Virus record (IMG/VR): IMGVR_UViG_2740892219_000011
Reading direction: 5' to 3' (one strand)
Length of the DNA: 33,830 bases
DNA from: a virus
Lineage: Duplodnaviria; Heunggongvirae; Uroviricota; Caudoviricetes
Made by a program: the position numbers and the translations under genes. Shown piece after piece: positions 5,422 to 33,830 of the stretch; position 1 is the stretch's first letter; each line of letters begins with the position of its first letter. The notes beneath the pieces were generated by a model. The model had not been told where the DNA came from, did not search any database, and saw only the letters and a program-made list of their open reading frames with translations.

Positions 5422-5946
5422 ATGGCTAAACCAGCAAAACGTATCAAAAGTGCCGCAGCGGCTTATGTGCCACAAAACCGCGATGCGGTGATTACCGATA
5501 TTAAACGCATCGGGGATTTACAGCGCGAAGCATCACGTCTGGAAACGGAAATGAATGATGCCATCGCGGAAATTACGGAGAAATTTGCAGCCCGGATTGC
5601 ACCGATTAAAACCGATATTGAAACCCTTTCAAAAGGTGTTCAGGGATGGTGTGAAGCGAACCGCGACGAACTGACAAACGGCGGCAAAGTGAAGACGGCG
5701 AATCTTGTCACCGGTGATGTATCGTGGCGGGTCCGTCCACCCTCAGTAAGTATTCGTGGTATGGATGCAGTGATGGAAACGCTGGAGCGTCTTGGCCTGC
5801 AACGCTTTATTCGCACGAAGCAGGAAATCAACAAGGAAGCGATTTTACTGGAACCGAAAGCGGTCGCAAGTGTTGCCGGAATTACAGTTAAATCGGGAAT
5901 TGAAGATTTTTCCATTATTCCGTTTGAACAGGAAGCCGGTATTTAA
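5422..5946 (+). CDS. gam: Gam host-nuclease inhibitor (Ku-like DNA-end-binding protein), 174 aa
   Basis: Sequence MAKPAKRIKSAAAAYVPQNRDAVITDIKRIGDLQREASRLE... is recognisable as Mu Gam, near-identical as far as I can recall. Confidence 0.92.
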   Translation: MAKPAKRIKSAAAAYVPQNRDAVITDIKRIGDLQREASRLETEMNDAIAEITEKFAARIAPIKTDIETLSKGVQGWCEANRDELTNGGKVKTANLVTGDVSWRVRPPSVSIRGMDAVMETLERLGLQRFIRTKQEINKEAILLEPKAVASVAGITVKSGIEDFSIIPFEQEAGI

Positions 5947-6044: not shown

Positions 6045-6575
6045 ATGGTTGATGCAAAAATTCTGAATGGTGTCAGCACATTATTACGGGCTTACGGACG
6101 CCTGACCTGCGGAGTTCTGGCTGAAAAAATGAATATGCTGCCCTCGTCAATGGTGTATTTCCTGCGTGATGCAGTTGATGCCGGAGTGCTCACCGAATGC
6201 AACGGATTTTATGACGTTCCGCGCCCGCGTCCGACGCCGCCTGTAAGACGAAACGTAACTGAGCAGCCTGCTGTTGATGATGCGGTGTGGTGCAACTGGC
6301 GTCGCTCATTACCCTGGGTGGAAGGTAATACCATCCCCGCGCTGGCAAAAGAGTTTGCGACGGGCGTACTGACCTGTGAATCCGTTCACATCGTTGCAGA
6401 AGTGGACAACAGCATGTGCGAACAGGGTATGCCCCGTTTTGTGATGGCTTATATCGATATCCGGCTTGGGCGTTTTATTTGCAGTTCAAGCGCCTGGAAT
6501 ATCACCGACCATGTACTGCGTTATCTCATTCTTGATTGTTCTCCGGTTCCCGCAGCGGTGCAGGAGGTGGCGTGA
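6045..6575 (+). CDS. Hypothetical early protein, 176 aa
   Basis: ORF with RBS GAGGAATAAAAC upstream of the ATG. Confidence 0.6.
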   Translation: MVDAKILNGVSTLLRAYGRLTCGVLAEKMNMLPSSMVYFLRDAVDAGVLTECNGFYDVPRPRPTPPVRRNVTEQPAVDDAVWCNWRRSLPWVEGNTIPALAKEFATGVLTCESVHIVAEVDNSMCEQGMPRFVMAYIDIRLGRFICSSSAWNITDHVLRYLILDCSPVPAAVQEVA

Positions 6576-7105
6576 TGTTTTTTAAAACGTCAAATTCCGC
6601 AGCACTGCTGGCATGGGACCAGTTTATGGCGGACTGCCTGAAACTACGCGAAGAAGCCCGCCATCTTGATAAGGTTCTGGGCTGTGGTTGCCGGTCAGTA
6701 TTCAGCACAGGTATTGGTGGGCGTCATTTTCATGGCGTGAATTTTCCGGGGAATGAGCGCCCCTTCTCGCGGGAGCTGTGGACCGTACAACGGCCCGCAT
6801 CAGGTAACAGTTGCAGGCCCAGAACTTCACGGATACCTGCTCATCTCAGGGAGCAGGCAAGAGAGCTGGCGAAAATATGGCAGGAGAATATTCCGGTCAC
6901 TTACGCCCGCACAGACGCTCTTTTACCCGCACTGGGACTGGATTTCAGCGCAACAATATTCGGGCCGCTCCAGTGGTTCCGTGTTGGTGATGTGATTTAC
7001 GTCATGACGGGGATGACACCCGCACAAGGCCGCATGACTGAAATCCTTTCTGACGAATTTATCCGGGCGCAAAAACAGGCGGAGGTAAACAATGGAAAAC
7101 AATGA
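6575..7105 (+). CDS. Hypothetical early protein, 176 aa
   Basis: Internal ATG at 6575 preceded by AGGAGG and overlapping the upstream stop (GTGATG); the longer ORF from 6536 lacks an RBS. Confidence 0.55.
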   Translation: MFFKTSNSAALLAWDQFMADCLKLREEARHLDKVLGCGCRSVFSTGIGGRHFHGVNFPGNERPFSRELWTVQRPASGNSCRPRTSRIPAHLREQARELAKIWQENIPVTYARTDALLPALGLDFSATIFGPLQWFRVGDVIYVMTGMTPAQGRMTEILSDEFIRAQKQAEVNNGKQ

Positions 7106-7284
7106 AAAACAATGAAACATCGTATTCGTGGCTGGGGAAATTTACCACGGTGAAACAGGAATGCCCGACCTGCGGTAATGAATCTCCTGAATATCTGAAA
7201 GAGTGCCCTCATTGTGGCGGGCAGAAATGCAACCACTGCGATATGGGCGATGACACGGCGTGCATGAATTGTGAAGGTGAATAA
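7102..7284 (+). CDS. Zinc-ribbon protein, 60 aa, four CxxC motifs
   Basis: CPTCG...CPHCGG...CNHCD...CMNCEG. Start overlaps the upstream stop (ATGA) inside a decamer tandem repeat. Confidence 0.6.
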   Translation: MKNNETSYSWLGKFTTVKQECPTCGNESPEYLKECPHCGGQKCNHCDMGDDTACMNCEGE

Positions 7285-7285
7285 T

Positions 7286-7576
7286 ATGAATAATGAAACT
7301 AAATTTACGCCTAAAGACCTGGATGAAGAACTGGTGAAAGCTAAGATGCTTGAGCGTATGCGCGATGTTATTGAGACTGCAATCAGTAAAGGCTTTTCTG
7401 CGAGAGAGGCCCTTGAAATTATGACACGGGAAATTCATCTCATACGCGACGAAGTTTTGTTGCATAACAAAAAAGCCCACAACAATATTGTTTGTCGTGA
7501 GCTTGGCGTTGATGATTCAGCGGTTATTCCACAGCGTCAGTATCTGTGTGCTCTGATGAGAGGTTCCCGGCATTAA
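7286..7576 (+). CDS. Hypothetical early protein, about 96 aa
   Basis: ATG 7286 preceded by GAAGGTGA. Its 3' end overlaps the convergent minus-strand ORF by about 53 nt, so one of the two calls may be wrong. Confidence 0.45.
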   Translation: MNNETKFTPKDLDEELVKAKMLERMRDVIETAISKGFSAREALEIMTREIHLIRDEVLLHNKKAHNNIVCRELGVDDSAVIPQRQYLCALMRGSRH

Positions 7577-7883
7577 CAATATCCTGCCTTGAAGCCCAGA
7601 GCTTATTGAGCAGCAGATCAACATACTCATCGGCCTCAAAATCCAGTTCTTCGAACGTTTTTCGGTTCTTATAGCTGGCCTGTGTATTTCTGATGATGTC
7701 ATAAGCATCGTGCATGTTGATAACACCGTTTTCAATCAGCTTAATCATCAGATTACCGACCAGCATAAAACCGGTTATACCAAAGAATTTATCCTGGTTA
7801 TTAACAGGGGTGTCTTTCTGGTTTGTTTCGAAATCTGGGTTTTGTTCATCATCCGACACCGTATGTTGTTCTTGTTCAGCCAT
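7524..7883 (-). CDS. Reverse-oriented, highly acidic hypothetical protein, 119 aa
   Basis: Minus-strand ORF with RBS AAGGAAAT 5-7 nt upstream of its ATG. Hand count gives about 24 Asp/Glu versus about 9 Lys/Arg; composition is protein-like. It is the only clearly protein-like frame across 7577-7952 and sits in an AT-richer stretch. Confidence 0.55.
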   Translation of the reverse strand: MAEQEQHTVSDDEQNPDFETNQKDTPVNNQDKFFGITGFMLVGNLMIKLIENGVINMHDAYDIIRNTQASYKNRKTFEELDFEADEYVDLLLNKLWASRQDIVNAGNLSSEHTDTDAVE

Positions 7884-7952
7884 AATATTTCCTTTTATGT
7901 TATTACTGAATATGGCGGTGTTGCAGCACCGCCTCTTTCCGGAGGTACGATC

Positions 7953-8504
7953 ATGAGTCGCACATCCCTGATTAAATTAATCCATGTCGCCCGTCGGGAG
8001 CTACAACTCGACGACGACACTTACCGCGCTTTTCTGATGCAGAAAACGGGCAAAATCAGTTGCCGCGAGCTTACGGTTACGCAACTGGAACAGGTGCTCG
8101 ATGCCATGAAAGAACGCGGCTTTAAGAAGCTGAATAAATACCCCCGTCGCCGCTTTAAGGAACATGTCACACCCCGCGAGAAGGTGTATAAAATCTGGCA
8201 GCAGATGGCAGAAGACGGTTTTATTACCGATGGCGGTGATGTGGCGCTGGACAGATATGTTCAACGCCTGACCGCGAAACGCAACGGCGGACAGGGTGTT
8301 TCCACACTGGCGTGGTGTCATGGCGACACGCTGCTGACAGTCCTCGAAACACTCAAACAGTGGCACATCCGCTGTATTCGTGAAGCCTTTTCCCGTCACG
8401 GGCTTCCATTGCCGGTCAGTCCGTCCGGTCGTGAACTGCGCGGCTATGATGCCATGACGGCGGCTTATGCCCATGCCAGAAAGACACAGAGGATGGCACA
8501 ATGA
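7953..8504 (+). CDS. gemA: GemA-like early protein, 183 aa
   Basis: ATG 7953 preceded by GGAGG at 7941-7945; position directly upstream of mor. The long ORF from 7710 is an artefactual upstream extension. Confidence 0.75.
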   Translation: MSRTSLIKLIHVARRELQLDDDTYRAFLMQKTGKISCRELTVTQLEQVLDAMKERGFKKLNKYPRRRFKEHVTPREKVYKIWQQMAEDGFITDGGDVALDRYVQRLTAKRNGGQGVSTLAWCHGDTLLTVLETLKQWHIRCIREAFSRHGLPLPVSPSGRELRGYDAMTAAYAHARKTQRMAQ

Positions 8505-8890
8505 CGGAAGATTTATTTGGTGATTTGCAGGATGACACCATCCTGGCACATCTTGACAATCCCGCAGAGGATACGTCACGCTTTCCGGCACTGCTGGCGG
8601 AGCTGAACGATTTACTACGCGGGGAATTGTCCCGACTGGGTGTTGATCCTGCCCATTCACTGGAGATTGTTGTGGCTATCTGTAAGCATCTGGGCGGCGG
8701 TCAGGTCTACATTCCACGCGGTCAGGTTCTGGACTCGCTGATTCGGGATTTGCGTATCTGGAATGATTTTAACGGTCGCAACGTCAGCGAACTGACCACC
8801 CGTTATGGTGTCACTTTCAATACGGTTTACAAGGCCATTCGCCGGATGCGACGGCTGAAATACCGCCAGTACCAGCCCTCACTTCTGTAA
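8501..8890 (+). CDS. mor: Mor middle-operon transcriptional activator, 129 aa
   Basis: Paralogous to the downstream C ORF (LGGGQVYIPRG / FNGRNVSELTTRYG versus LGGRQFYIPCG / FNGRNMEELRRQYR); last gene of the early operon, followed by a terminator. Confidence 0.9.
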   Translation: MTEDLFGDLQDDTILAHLDNPAEDTSRFPALLAELNDLLRGELSRLGVDPAHSLEIVVAICKHLGGGQVYIPRGQVLDSLIRDLRIWNDFNGRNVSELTTRYGVTFNTVYKAIRRMRRLKYRQYQPSLL

Positions 8891-8895
8891 ACAGT

Positions 8896-8920
8896 AAAGC
8901 CGGTTAATCCGGCTTTTTTT
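8896..8920 (+). terminator. Intrinsic terminator ending the early transcript
   Basis: Hairpin AAGCCGG-TTAAT-CCGGCTT followed by a 7-T run, immediately after the mor stop. Confidence 0.8.
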
Positions 8921-8967
8921 ACGTCCTCAATATCCTGTGATGAATAACCGTACCGGGGGAAATCATC

Positions 8968-9186
8968 ATGGGTAAAGGCTGGAATGCATCCTTTCATCTT
9001 GGCAGACGTGAGCGGCTGCGTCAGGAGGTTTTGCACCGTGTCGCCGGTGGGCCACGTCCTGCGCCCCGCGACTATACCGGTCATGATGGCACCCACGGCA
9101 GTTATTACATGAAAGGCTGGCAGTCAGTTGATATGCCGGAAATTCTTCATCATTGCCTGCTTTACAGGGAGAAACATTATGTCTGA
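8968..9186 (+). CDS. Hypothetical protein, 72 aa, first ORF of the presumed middle operon
   Basis: ORF with RBS GGGGGAAA. The Mor-dependent middle promoter is expected in the roughly 50 bp between the terminator and this start; not positioned. Confidence 0.45.
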   Translation: MGKGWNASFHLGRRERLRQEVLHRVAGGPRPAPRDYTGHDGTHGSYYMKGWQSVDMPEILHHCLLYREKHYV

Positions 9187-9541
9187 GCGTTCTGCTCGTC
9201 AGTGGCCTGATTTTTTATCGGTGGTGTTACTGGCGCTGTTATTGTGGATAAGTCTGTTTTGTGGCTGGCGCGCGCTGATGTTTTGCTGTGCCTCGGTTTT
9301 CAGTGTTGCTTTATGTGTTGCCGGTGATTGCCTGGATGCGCTGATAATGAGCTGCCGGGTGCCTGAACATTTTGCCCGGTTCGTCTGGCCTCTGACCTGG
9401 CTGGGGAGTCTGTCCGGGCTGGGATTAGCCGTGATGGCCACGTCTCAACTGAAAACGGGTCCTGAGCATGTCATCTGGGCGCTGGCCGGATTGCTGACGT
9501 TCTGGATCTCCTTTCGTTTTCGCGCTCGTCTGTTCGGGTAA
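9179..9541 (+). CDS. Cys-rich integral membrane protein, 120 aa
   Basis: RBS AGGGAGAAA; several hydrophobic helices (VVLLALLLWISLF, LGLAVMA, ALAGLLTFWI). Confidence 0.6.
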   Translation: MSERSARQWPDFLSVVLLALLLWISLFCGWRALMFCCASVFSVALCVAGDCLDALIMSCRVPEHFARFVWPLTWLGSLSGLGLAVMATSQLKTGPEHVIWALAGLLTFWISFRFRARLFG

Positions 9542-30645: not shown

Positions 30646-31178
30646 CACCCTATCAGACGGCCTTTCTGCAATTACTGCCGTCAGGGCTTGCCTGGAATAA
30701 AAGCCCCGACAGCAAATTATCTGCGCTGGCGCAGGCCATCAGCGACGTGATTGCCACTGCGGCGGATGATGCGCGGCAAATGCTGCGGGAGCGTTTCCCG
30801 TCCACATCCCGCTGGTATCTGGGGGAGTGGGAATCATTTCTGGGGTTGCCGGACTGTACCAGCGAAAACGGCACCCTGTCCGAACGCCAGCGGGCTGCCG
30901 CGAATAAAATGCGTATGACCGGCAATCTGAGTCGGCGCTTTTATGAATGGCTGGCTGCGCAGTACGGTTTTACCGTCAGGCTGACGGATTCCACAGAAGG
31001 CCAGTGGGTTACGCAGGTCAATATTTACGGTATTAAAAATTATCGCAACGCAACGGTGCTGGATAATGTTCTGACGCCGTTACGTGTTTATGAATCGGGT
31101 GCGCTGGAATGTTTACTGGAGAAATATAAACCCGCACATCAGATTTATAAATTTGTTTACCATGACGGAGATAACTAA
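30636..31178 (+). CDS. Baseplate / tail-fibre attachment protein (gpI-like), 180 aa
   Basis: Last baseplate gene before tail fibre S. Confidence 0.6.
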   Translation: MAVTPYQTAFLQLLPSGLAWNKSPDSKLSALAQAISDVIATAADDARQMLRERFPSTSRWYLGEWESFLGLPDCTSENGTLSERQRAAANKMRMTGNLSRRFYEWLAAQYGFTVRLTDSTEGQWVTQVNIYGIKNYRNATVLDNVLTPLRVYESGALECLLEKYKPAHQIYKFVYHDGDN

Positions 31179-32299
31179 TGTTTTATATTGATAACGACAG
31201 CGGCGTAACCGTCATGCCGCCCGTATCCGCCCAGCGTAGTGCTATCGTTCGCTGGTTTTCAGAAGGTGACGGGAATAATGTTATCACATGGCCCGGCATG
31301 GACTGGTTTAATATTGTGCAGGCGGAGTTATTAAACACGCTGGAAGAAGCCGGTATTCAACCGGATAAAACAAAATTAAACCAGCTTGCACTGTCCATTA
31401 AAGCCATTATGAGCAATAACGCGCTGCTGATAAAAAATAACCTCAGCGAAATTAAAACTGCCGGGGCATCAGCACAGCGTACAGCACGTGAAAATCTGGA
31501 TATCTGGGATGCCAGCCTGAACAAAAAAGGACTCGTTCAGCTAACCAGTGCCACTGACAGCCCCAGTGAAACGCTGGCAGCCACCGCAAAAGCGGTGAAA
31601 ATTGCGATGGATAAAAACCTCGGTTTACAGGAAACTGTAAAATTAGCTTCGGAAGCGTTATCAACATATGGCGGGGTGGTTAACGGTGATGTGATTATCA
31701 AGGGCATTCTCTCGTTAATTGGGAATGAATTACTTATTGAAAAAGATAATGGCTTTTCTGGTATTCACATCAGAAACAAGAGCACGGTTGCAGGAAGTGC
31801 AAATGGAGTCGATTTCTCATTTGGCGGAGCGATTATGTCATCGCTCATTTGCGGAATAATGGAAAATGGCGCGAACTACATAGATGTTGCATTGTCTCCG
31901 GCAGGCAATATTTCTGACCGCCGCAAGGTTGCATTTACTTTGGATGGAAATATCAGGCAGTTAATTCCCCAGAATGGATGGAGCATTCAGGGGTATACAA
32001 AAAACAGTGATTTTACCCAGGCGATGGCCGATGCTGGCTGGGTACGTTTTCCAAATGGCATCATTTTTCAATGGTGTTGGGGAAATACTGATGCCAGTGG
32101 CTGGGCATCTGCCCCGTTTCCTGTTGGTTGGCCTGTTCGTTGCTTTGGTTTGTTAGCCTGTAACGTTGCTGGTGACTCGATAGCAAGTGCAATTGCGGGT
32201 GTTAAAAGATTAAATGATCGCGATATGCAGGTCACGTTAATGGAAAGGTCTGGGGTTGCTGTTTCTAAACCATTCTTCTGTATTGGTGTGGGGTGTTAA
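31178..32299 (+). CDS. S: Tail fibre protein S, with constant part and G-segment variable part, 373 aa
   Basis: Followed by a tail-fibre assembly gene and by inverted U'-S' on the minus strand; a gix-like recombination site lies inside the ORF. Confidence 0.8.
   Translation: MFYIDNDSGVTVMPPVSAQRSAIVRWFSEGDGNNVITWPGMDWFNIVQAELLNTLEEAGIQPDKTKLNQLALSIKAIMSNNALLIKNNLSEIKTAGASAQRTARENLDIWDASLNKKGLVQLTSATDSPSETLAATAKAVKIAMDKNLGLQETVKLASEALSTYGGVVNGDVIIKGILSLIGNELLIEKDNGFSGIHIRNKSTVAGSANGVDFSFGGAIMSSLICGIMENGANYIDVALSPAGNISDRRKVAFTLDGNIRQLIPQNGWSIQGYTKNSDFTQAMADAGWVRFPNGIIFQWCWGNTDASGWASAPFPVGWPVRCFGLLACNVAGDSIASAIAGVKRLNDRDMQVTLMERSGVAVSKPFFCIGVGC
31609..31634. other. gix-like DNA-invertase crossover site (left boundary of the invertible G segment) inside S
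   Basis: Reverse complement reads TTCCTGTAAACCGAGGTTTTTATCC, closely resembling the Gin/Hin recombination site consensus as I recall it. Confidence 0.6.
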
Positions 32300-32301
32300 T
32301 C

Positions 32302-32778
32302 ATGTCCAGTAAAATATTCTATAGTGCCAGGAATAATACGTTTTTCTTTGAATCCATGAAACCGGACTATGAAAAATCAGGCGCATGGCCTGACGATTTG
32401 GTGGCAGTCACAAACGATATGTATGAAGAGTTTACGGGAAGACCGCCAGAGGGAAAAAAGAGAGGCCGTGATGAATCTGGTTTCCCTACATGGATTGATG
32501 TATCAGAACCAACAACAGAGCAGTTAATCGCATTAAAAGAGCAGAAGAAAAAGGATTTAGCCGAGATTGCGAACACAGAAATTGCCTGGCGGCAGGATGC
32601 TGTTGACGCAGGGATGGCGACAGAAGCAGAAATCACTGTACTGGCTGAATGGAAAAAATATCGTGTGCTGCTTATGCGTATTGATACATCAACCGCGACG
32701 GATATTGAGTGGCCCGCTGTTCCAGACGAACAAAGCGGCAAAGAGAGCAGCGCAGAGGATGTGAAAACGACGCTATAA
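32302..32778 (+). CDS. U: Tail fibre assembly protein, 158 aa
   Basis: ATG 32302 just after the S stop (the track ORF begins at GTG 32293); small acidic protein downstream of the fibre gene. Confidence 0.75.
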   Translation: MSSKIFYSARNNTFFFESMKPDYEKSGAWPDDLVAVTNDMYEEFTGRPPEGKKRGRDESGFPTWIDVSEPTTEQLIALKEQKKKDLAEIANTEIAWRQDAVDAGMATEAEITVLAEWKKYRVLLMRIDTSTATDIEWPAVPDEQSGKESSAEDVKTTL

Positions 32779-32882
32779 TACCAGCACAATTATTATCATT
32801 TTTGTTATTTTGTATTTCCTTGCTTTCCGCAGTCATGTGGATATGGAAAAGCCTGGATGGCCACAAAAGCCTGAGTAAAATT

Positions 32883-32902
32883 AAGGCCCGATAACGGGCC
32901 TT
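32883..32902. terminator. Hairpin between convergent U and U' (probable terminator)
   Basis: AAGGCCCG-ATAA-CGGGCCTT perfect stem immediately 3' of the U' stop on the minus strand, flanked by A/T runs. Confidence 0.55.
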
Positions 32903-32904
32903 TC

Positions 32905-33438
32905 TCATTCTGGTTGTTCGGGGAATGTTACCGGCAGGCTGGAGGTGTCTGTGGATTCGACTTTCTGCGCATAGAGCATCCACTCGGTTAATTTCTGTTT
33001 ATTCTCATCGGAAATGATGCCCAGCCGTAGCTGTGAGTCCCATAGCTGGGTTTTATCCCTGACAAGTTGCAACAGGCTTTGTTTTTCATTCTCTGCCTGC
33101 TGCCTCTGCTCTTCCCCGGTATAAGTTCGCTTTATCACCGCACCATCTTTGAACATCCATTTACCCGAAATATCAGCCCGGCGATTTGCTGTAATATCAG
33201 GTAATTCAACGACGCTTGCGCCTTCTGGATTAATTGCTGAAACATCCTTTTCAATACAAATAATAACGCCGTTATGGTCATAGACCATTTTCAACGTATC
33301 AGACTGGAAATTCTTTTGTTCCTCATACCAGTTTTTTCCATCCTCTGTATAAAGCCATTTGATGTTAAATTGCTTTGTTAGCTGATATTGCTCTTTTGTT
33401 TTAGGATTGCCAGCAGTAATGTTTTTTAAGTGCATCAT
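32905..33438 (-). CDS. U': Alternative tail fibre assembly protein, 177 aa
   Basis: Minus-strand ORF inside the G segment, typical Tfa-like protein, convergent with U. Confidence 0.8.
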   Translation of the reverse strand: MMHLKNITAGNPKTKEQYQLTKQFNIKWLYTEDGKNWYEEQKNFQSDTLKMVYDHNGVIICIEKDVSAINPEGASVVELPDITANRRADISGKWMFKDGAVIKRTYTGEEQRQQAENEKQSLLQLVRDKTQLWDSQLRLGIISDENKQKLTEWMLYAQKVESTDTSSLPVTFPEQPE

Positions 33439-33440
33439 CG

Positions 33441-33830
33441 TTAAATACTCCCCGCGTTATACCACGTCCCATTAATGCAATACTGAATTGGCCTTGCCTG
33501 AGTTGTATCAATTAATTCGTCACGGTTTCCGTTAACTGAACCTGTAACGACATAACCTGACTTATCAGACCAACCAGGCCCATTCCATGTTTGAACAGAT
33601 GACAGTCCTCCTAAACGGACACCTGTAATAAATCGTGAATTACATTCCGCTTTAGTATATGCACCAACATCTCCTGCTGAAGGTTTTCTGGTGGTGGTGT
33701 AAAATTCGGACCAGTCGGCTTCAAAACCATAACCATCACGGGCTGAACGATAAAAGATACCGCCGTTCTTATAATTCACGCGGAACTGTACTGCCGGACA
33801 ACTACCCGTATTCATATTGAAATGAAGAAT
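33441..33830 (-). CDS. S': Alternative tail fibre variable C-terminal part, partial; 5' end lies beyond the window
   Basis: Minus-strand ORF ending at 33441; the frame stays open to the window edge. Gly/Asn/Thr-rich receptor-binding-like C-terminus, unrelated to the C-terminus of S. Confidence 0.7.
   Translation of the reverse strand: MLHFNMNTGSCPAVQFRVNYKNGGIFYRSARDGYGFEADWSEFYTTTRKPSAGDVGAYTKAECNSRFITGVRLGGLSSVQTWNGPGWSDKSGYVVTGSVNGNRDELIDTTQARPIQYCINGTWYNAGSI

Follow-up and report, generated by a model that had tools for sequence, protein, structure and literature searches.

For all its standing as a reference phage, Mu has a semi-essential early region to most of which no function has been assigned. 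A moron, in the concept of Hendrix and Juhala, is an extra gene, equipped with a promoter and a terminator of its own, that sits between backbone genes, is often deviant in composition and is expressed from the prophage. In the Mu-like Pseudomonas phage Fc02, opposite-strand overlapping early/regulatory genes (olg1, olg2, gene 10) have been described, one set being expressed in the lysogen and the other from an early lytic promoter, with superinfection exclusion as the outcome (PMC9936078). Here we compare with these systems a locus in the Mu-like phage genome IMGVR_UViG_2740892219_000011 from IMG/VR, a stretch of 33,830 nucleotides (nt) that is called the window below. A preliminary description had marked positions 7085–7952 of the window, directly ahead of gemA, as an AT-richer accessory island that holds a decamer repeat, an open reading frame (ORF) with four CxxC motifs, a small plus-strand ORF, a reverse acidic ORF and a dyad. 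All of these features are present at the sequence level, but our analysis points to an allelic replacement within narrower limits, with an opposite-strand gene, here named rev, that has its own terminator inside gene 14.

The closest described relatives carry the same DNA. Escherichia virus Mu_3F6 (LR595867) is 100% identical to the window over 6500–8600, with the same gene order across the interval, and phage D108 is 97.8% identical over the same stretch. The D108 counterpart of the interval, consisting of genes 13 and 14 and an unannotated 376-bp gap before gemA (NC_013594, 7431–8281), matches at 98–99% identity and in the same gene order; the reverse gene is not annotated in RefSeq D108. 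With the same query, Mu, SfMu and several Yersinia and Escherichia Mu-like phages align to the flanks alone. Mu (AF083977, 7471–8232) has a like order of gp13, gp14, reverse ORF, dyad and gemA, and a terminator hairpin in the same place, but it lacks nucleotide homology over 7312–7913. Conservation of synteny and sequence together, for which the preliminary description had named both reference phages, thus holds for D108 and not for Mu. The window is a Mu-like phage, and the interval is best read as the D108 allelic form of the distal part of the semi-essential early region of Mu-type phages; the gene order in deposited annotations agrees with the earlier guess of this location. This region was known, sequenced and partly annotated before; the interval is one of its rare alleles and does not constitute a new type of element.

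The limits of the variable DNA were mapped by blastn of the window against eight related phages. Homology to Mu, SfMu and YpM spans gene 12, the decamer, gene 13 and the first ~9 codons of gene 14, ends at 7295–7311, and restarts exactly at 7914, where the dyad begins. In composition and variability alike, the unit is 7312–7913 and not 7085–7952. The decamer and the gene with the CxxC motifs, both earlier counted as island content, lie in conserved backbone, and the dyad is not cargo but the invariant right border. The features on which the argument rests are as follows.

7312–7913, no strand: variable AT-rich cassette without nucleotide homology to Mu, SfMu or YpM (blastn breakpoints)
7286–7576, plus strand: gene 14 (Mu E15), D108-type allele, 96 amino acids (aa); phrog_6075, E 1e-46
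7883–7524, minus strand: the reverse gene rev, 119 aa
7890–7894, minus strand: Shine-Dalgarno motif AAGGA of rev, 6 nt upstream of its ATG, read from the sequence
7463–7504, minus strand: intrinsic-terminator-like hairpin with a 13-bp stem (7473–7504) and a T-run (7463–7472), from a terminator scan
7914–7933, plus strand: conserved dyad/hairpin GGCGGTG-TTGCAG-CACCGCC, followed by TCTTTCC, at the right border of the variable cassette
7953–8504, plus strand: gemA, conserved right backbone, with ribosome-binding site (RBS) GGAGG at 7941–7945; Pfam PF06252 GemA, E 5e-31

Gene content at this position does vary among the aligned Mu-like phages, as had been supposed. Gene 14, rev and the dyad are found together in Mu-like (pro)phages, Mu included, in at least nine very divergent allele types. 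Since Mu, SfMu, the Yersinia phages and distant Mu-like prophages hold homologous genes in the same order, we regard the D108-type DNA as an allelic replacement and not as an insertion. The allele is rare: it was seen in D108, Mu_3F6, a few prophages and viral contigs (IMG/VR loci L027 and L031; L numbers denote loci throughout), and in 1 of 5426 complete E. coli genomes (strain JCKP02). Between the window and Mu, identity is 33% for gp14 and 19% for the rev product, against 97% for GemA. The closest relative of the window rev is that of L012 (41%), though the L012 GemA is just 41% identical. L022-type phages show 88% nucleotide identity to window positions 7094–7478, which end at the terminator hairpin; from there to the dyad their rev is a different one. 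Because L022 pairs a D108-like gene 14 with a different rev, the alleles of the two genes are separable, and recombination joints fall in three places: the beginning of gene 14, the rev terminator and the dyad.

Several relatives have lost parts of this unit. In the plaque-forming isolate vB_YpM_3 (YpM_3), as likewise in L037, rev is missing and gene 14 is followed directly by the dyad and gemA. In prophage variants L010 and L023, gp13 is followed by the dyad and gemA, both gene 14 and rev being gone, while PhiR68_1 carries wholly different genes here and has neither gene 13, gene 14 nor rev. The gene 14/rev unit is thus dispensable and deletable in viable phages. In L010 (1400–1540; prophage of E. 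coli FDAARGOS_1058) and L023, a natural deletion has left a fusion of the opening 6 codons of gene 14 with the opening codons of rev, the dyad and gemA being intact.

The claim of AT-richness was borne out by computation. The guanine plus cytosine (GC) content of 7085–7952 is 42.9%, against 52.4% for the whole window; the hand counts of 35–42% in the preliminary description were right about the trend and slightly low in value. The flanking genes gp11, gp12, gemA and mor have 52–54% GC and the late region 55.5%. Segments of 868 nt that are equally AT-rich are just those that overlap 7085–7952 or lie at both genome ends, and they make up 2.2% of all such segments and 0.6% of those in the early region. 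Consecutive 60-nt blocks within the interval range from 30% to 60% GC. Third-position GC is likewise reduced, at 39% in gene 14 and 47% in the reverse ORF versus 52–58% in neighbouring genes. For the variable cassette the value is ~41% (41.1% computed for 7296–7913), and every alternative cassette at the site is also AT-richer than its flanks (41–48% versus 50–56%). The only other equally AT-rich stretches of the window are 1–1000 and 31000–33830 (37–46% GC), at both genome ends, which we take to be the repressor/ner end and the tail-fibre/gin/mom end, respectively.

The product of rev has 119 aa, an isoelectric point of 4.28 and a net charge of -15, with a disordered acidic N-terminus and three predicted helices. 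It matches phrog_38610 over its full length (E 8e-83) and phrog_32893 weakly (E 5e-7). A word-indexed search retrieved the near-identical D108-type cluster alone, whereas a full HMMER scan of 1.84 billion representatives yielded five further proteins of 60–91 aa; the phmmer matches P0002 and P0004–P0007 had E values of 1e-13 to 1e-5. The homologues have a common core, DFDxAGFLLxGNxMxxLVEKGVIDMxxAxxII, and the genes of the 60–91-aa proteins invariably adjoin gemA upstream, in divergent orientation, in otherwise diverged Mu-like prophages. At these distant loci the spacer between rev and gemA is 66–71 nt, and the 3' end of rev overlaps that of a gene 14 homologue convergently, as it does in the window (53 nt). 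In other alleles that we read, motifs resembling a Shine-Dalgarno site lie 5–10 nt before the rev ATG. Mu itself has an 88-aa reverse ORF in the same place, with matches to phrog_8747 and phrog_32893; hhalign of rev against it gave a probability of 69% (E 4.6e-5). The tie of rev to the Mu type is weaker than its tie to the 60–91-aa group, and the D108-type protein has an extra 24-residue acidic N-terminus. Between the Mu-type and L044-type rev, 90 of 264 nt differ (34% divergence) and the 88-codon frame is unbroken, with a ratio of nonsynonymous to synonymous substitution rates (dN/dS) of ~0.37. PGAP annotates the reverse gene in E. coli W and JCKP02, it is also annotated in Mu_3F6, and the 1991 Mu record M64097 lists the reverse frame as 'putative F-134'; it is labelled hypothetical in every source. 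The PHROG families, the core motif of the HMMER homologues, the conserved position and orientation, the Shine-Dalgarno-like motifs and the intact ORF together argue that rev is a genuine opposite-strand protein gene.

A profile scan of species-representative genomes with rev returned one locus, L081, from Klebsiella sp. WOUb02, in a 774-kb record titled plasmid unnamed6. The layout of gene 14, rev, dyad and gemA is found there on a replicon labelled as a large plasmid, with a rev of the D108-like subfamily.

Downstream of rev, on its own strand, lies a predicted intrinsic terminator. The hairpin starts 20 nt past the rev stop, within codons of gene 14 (KKAHNNIVCRELG), and runs on the minus strand from 7504 to 7473, followed by TTTTGTTATG. 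It folds at -18.3 kcal/mol (z = -3.0). All other allele types examined have a strong hairpin and T-run at the equivalent site despite their differing sequence. In an alignment of 6 alleles, 93.6% of cells in the stem pair, versus 37–54% with slid partners, and 5 pairs show compensatory double changes, the observed score being matched in 0 of 500 shuffles; with 10 alleles there are 4 compensatory pairs. The hairpin also encodes the gene 14 motif K-A-[HR]...R-x-L-G, and the same bases thus serve both gene 14 coding and rev termination. There is no T-run after the hairpin on the plus strand, and therefore it should not halt early transcription. We conclude that rev has its own, predicted terminator, which would act in one direction.

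The GC-rich dyad borders rev on its 5' side and lies 7 nt ahead of the gemA RBS and 19 nt ahead of the gemA ATG at 7953. Its stem has 7 perfect pairs, or 8 with a G-U pair, and folds at -17.4 kcal/mol. Since chance alone might well produce a 7-bp dyad in 870 nt, we take it as real on the strength of its conservation: it is found at every locus that carries rev. Its arms are invariant while the loop varies (TTGCAG, TTGCCG, CTGTCA, CTGCAA, CTGTAA), in alleles whose GemA is 41–80% identical to that of the window. The exact dyad pattern gave 28 matches in 2.9 million viral contigs, all but one of them (27/28) beside gemA. Co-occurrence was scored in a set of 80 loci, made up of loci found by GemA similarity, reference phages and contexts of rev homologues. 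Every rev locus among them also has gene 14 and the dyad, and loci with other genes before gemA have no dyad, including the PhiR68_1, L019, L040 and L046 types, whose GemA is 80–96% identical. The exceptions are deletion remnants: L008 and L037 retain gene 14 and the dyad and have lost rev, L010 and L023 have 5' stubs of gene 14 and rev together with the dyad, and L055 has the dyad alone. In some alleles the plus-strand tail of the dyad is T-rich (TCTTTTTTGG in L012; also TCTTTTTCGG). A Mor/C-type site was considered as a control of rev and set aside, the dyad being unlike the Pm dyad. The Mu GenBank record places a rightward 'semi-early promoter' at Mu 8151–8217, over the rev start and the dyad (citing PMID 9454718), and constitutive expression of the gem operon in lysogens is cited in a passage of PMC3820752.

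The gene 14 product is 99% identical to that of D108 and 33–36% identical to that of Mu (BLASTP 36%, E 8e-20), both belonging to phrog_6075; the difference in gene 14 between D108 and Mu was remarked upon in the SfMu paper (PMC4406740). Its AlphaFold2 model (mean predicted local distance difference test score, pLDDT, 79) is all-helical with four helices. Searches of Pfam, NCBIfam and PADLOC and a sequence-profile search of the PDB found no relative of gp14, and Foldseek of the model against the PDB found no match (best E 0.78). GatB/cohesin matches in the gp14 and rev profile searches (E 0.06–0.16) were taken as noise. An Rfam search gave no family above threshold.

The reading that we favour, at a probability of roughly 55%, is a D108-form early region in which a moron-like rev is made in the lysogen and gene 14 in the lytic cycle, with the products having a role in conflict. 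In this scheme rev would be a moron-like accessory gene transcribed leftwards, antisense within the early operon and independent of the early promoter Pe, and its most plausible time of expression would be the lysogenic state, with the early operon repressed. Upon induction, strong rightward early transcription could silence rev through convergent transcription and RNA pairing, and the gene 14 product would be made during lytic growth only. The dyad would most likely act at the level of RNA or transcription on the early strand, as a leaky terminator, an insulator or a 5' stem-loop before gemA-mor. The extreme allelic diversity next to near-identical flanks suggests that the products act in host/phage conflict and not in core Mu development. 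The accessory, or moron, part of the preliminary description thus survives in rev, which is dispensable, lies between genes that are adjacent in relatives, has its own terminator and RBS, a lower GC content (41% versus 52–54% in the flanks) and an independent orientation; an insertion peculiar to this phage does not survive. Unlike a plain moron, the unit partly overlaps gene 14 and exists in many alleles at a fixed site, and the rev promoter was not found by scanning. The locus resembles that of Fc02 in that a Mu-like phage carries overlapping opposite-strand genes in its early region, but the Fc02 genes lie beside repressor/ner and not gemA, their proteins are unrelated, and their expression and function have been demonstrated, whereas the present genes are known from sequence alone.

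A number of observations weigh against this reading. A dN/dS of ~0.37 is only moderate constraint. No family, defence or PDB relative of rev was found by Pfam, NCBIfam, PADLOC, PDB sequence-profile search or Foldseek, the AlphaFold2 model being of low confidence (mean pLDDT 59). A simple consensus scan of the minus strand over 7800–9400 found no sigma-70-like promoter for rev, although weak or activator-dependent promoters would escape such a scan, and reading the alleles revealed no conserved -10/-35 elements for rev. The timing of rev expression is purely our inference. The co-occurrence of gene 14 and rev may reflect their mere physical overlap. As for the dyad, its U-tract in the window is short (TCTTTCC) and is not called by the terminator scan, and arms that are invariant and show no compensatory changes are as compatible with the binding site of a sequence-specific protein as with an RNA hairpin.

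A different view is that gene 14, rev and the dyad form a regulatory device for gemA-mor, with the dyad as attenuator or operator and the rev protein or a ~400-nt antisense RNA tuning early or 'semi-early' transcription into mor and thereby the timing of the middle phase. The invariance of the dyad 7 nt from the gemA RBS, the rightward semi-early promoter that spans it and the rev start in the Mu record, the conserved divergent pairing of rev and gemA across 66–71 nt, and the T-rich plus-strand tails in several alleles all fit this idea. So does the next early terminator of Mu, which is also a dyad, just upstream of the middle promoter that mor activates; that dyad overlaps the Mor-binding site. 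We nevertheless consider the device unlikely: phages with 80–96% identical GemA have no dyad, rev or gene 14, gemA being packed head-to-tail behind other genes, and gemA-mor expression therefore needs no such device; moreover, rev is acidic and hypervariable, which is unlike a DNA-binding regulator of an invariant site, and there are viable phages without it. Somewhat more doubtful is a stricter two-state cassette of gene 14, rev and dyad, present in many Mu-like phages, in which a promoter between rev and gemA would drive rev solely in the lysogen; rev would serve in superinfection exclusion or defence or as a brake on gemA-mor, convergent early transcription and gene 14 would turn it off upon induction, and the invariant dyad would be the shared control element. 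It is improbable, in our estimate, that gene 14 and rev make up a two-component conflict system (toxin-antitoxin-like, exclusion or abortive-infection) on opposite strands and in mutually exclusive states. The two genes do occur together with convergent overlap in every allele, both are hypervariable, they are deleted as a unit in L010 and L023, and there is the precedent of a Mu-like Pseudomonas phage in which opposite-strand overlapping early-region genes have exclusion activity (PMC9936078). Yet the alleles uncouple, as in L022 with its D108-like gene 14 and different rev and in YpM_3 with gene 14 alone, neither gene resembles any toxin-antitoxin or defence family, and a rev terminator within gene 14 is enough to account for the co-occurrence.

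The insertion proposed in the preliminary description, a recent foreign moron or anti-defence island over 7085–7952 specific to this lineage, has been largely refuted by synteny and we give it very little credence. Its low GC, its rarity among complete E. coli genomes (1/5426) and the lack of nucleotide similarity to Mu speak for it, but Mu and all close relatives hold homologous genes in the same order and orientation, which implies replacement, and 7085–7311 and 7914–7952 are conserved backbone. The anti-defence assignment also failed, with no defence or anti-defence homology in PADLOC, Pfam, NCBIfam, PDB sequences or Foldseek. Least probable of all is that rev is no gene, the reverse ORF being a by-product and the hairpins serving only the processing or stability of early mRNA. 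No promoter was detected, RefSeq D108 leaves the stretch unannotated and the Mu record has the plus-strand ORF Mu_54 there instead; against this, the ORF, its start, the Shine-Dalgarno motif and the core peptide motif are retained across alleles of 19–50% identity, the terminator T-run is on the minus strand only, and Mu_54 has no PHROG match and has lost its ATG and stop in L044.

This last point bears on the annotation of Mu. In the Mu reference (AF083977), the 55-aa plus-strand ORF Mu_54/Mup15 lies at ~7960–8127 (L002 2582–2749) without a PHROG match. The 88-aa reverse ORF at ~7896–8162 (L002 2518–2784, minus strand) is antisense to it and unannotated there, while RefSeq annotates it in SfMu. 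The reverse ORF has a Shine-Dalgarno site, a terminator and conservation across alleles, and both the ATG and the stop of Mu_54 are lost in L044. The dN/dS is 0.45 in the Mup15 frame versus 0.26 in the rev frame, a difference that is not decisive against Mup15 as a gene. On balance, Mu_54/Mup15 has probably been placed on the wrong strand: the conserved gene opposite it, which has a terminator of its own, suggests that the Mu reference annotation may be mistaken here. If the two-state cassette were true, rev would represent an overlooked family of prophage-expressed Mu genes as well. The locus is also a fixed hot spot for the swapping of highly divergent small genes, of the kind where prophages usually encode functions in host modification, exclusion or counter-defence; a short and defined set of candidates for function is offered by rev, gp14 and the dyad. 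To our knowledge, four points have not been described before: that gene 14 contains a covarying terminator, that the invariant dyad is strictly tied to gene 14 and rev, that the alleles form such a series, and that Mu_54/Mup15 is likely to be annotated on the wrong strand.

A second, unrelated reverse gene adjoins gemA in L019 (1054–1470, minus strand) and also in L039, L041, L042, L047 and L061. It encodes 138 aa, has no Pfam family and lies ~27 nt from the gemA ATG, with a small dyad (TCTCAT...ATGAGA) in between. Opposite-strand accessory genes thus seem to have been drawn more than once to the position immediately before gemA.

The backbone around the cassette comprises the following features.

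5422–5946: gam (deposited annotations)
6045–6575: gene 11 (deposited annotations)
6575–7105, plus strand: gene 12 (Mu gp12/E13 homologue), conserved left backbone, 52.9% GC; phrog_2314, E 1.9e-79; annotated in Mu, D108 and Mu_3F6
7087–7117, no strand: decamer tandem repeat AAACAATGAA, 3.1 copies (Tandem Repeats Finder and repeat finding), covering the gene 12 stop and gene 13 start
7102–7284, plus strand: gene 13 (Mu E14), 60 aa, conserved and outside the variable cassette; phrog_5584, E 5e-44
8501–8890, plus strand: mor, directly after gemA

On the 3' side of mor, a strong plus-strand terminator hairpin at 8896–8916 (AAAGCCGGTTAATCCGGCTTT, followed by a T-run) is the counterpart of the early-operon terminator, which the Mu record places inside the annotated middle-promoter region.

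The decamer is present in 2 copies in all other relatives, the third copy being private to this phage and Mu_3F6, which accordingly differ from D108 by one additional 10-nt copy of the repeat where genes 12 and 13 meet. This 10-nt tandem duplication leaves the gene 12 stop unaffected and shifts the gene 13 start from the ATG at 7092 to that at 7102, so that a 14-nt overlap of genes 12 and 13 becomes an ATGA stop/start overlap and residue 2 of gp13 changes from E to K. The extra copy is harmless and belongs to no island. We also considered the decamer as a phase-variable slippage site that fuses gp12 and gp13, and rejected this because the 2-copy arrangement of the relatives and the 3-copy arrangement of the window both preserve both genes, and because the gp13-containing fusions of L019-type phages come from a different upstream gene.

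Genes 13 and 14 belong to the E14 (gp13) and E15 (gp14) families of Mu and D108, as judged from PHROG matches and synteny between gp12 and gemA. The product of gene 13 is nearly identical in Mu, and gp13 and the decamer can be assigned to the conserved backbone, outside the variable unit. The four CxxC motifs of gp13 lie at residues 21–24, 35–38, 43–46 and 54–57. Matches to the Pfam families DnaJ_CXXCXGXG, Zn_ribbon_LapB and DZR all fell under the gathering score, and the label of a probable zinc ribbon therefore rests on the four motifs. A match to the NCBIfam 'Lar family restriction alleviation protein' (E 0.029; 14.7 bits versus a cut-off of 39.6) was dismissed as probable cysteine-motif noise. 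In L019-type phages (L019 21–779, plus strand), a 252-aa ORF carries the gp13 zinc-ribbon sequence as its C-terminal domain in place of a separate 60-aa gene, and gp13 of the window aligns to the C-terminal end (175–231) of the 231-position profile phrog_6418.

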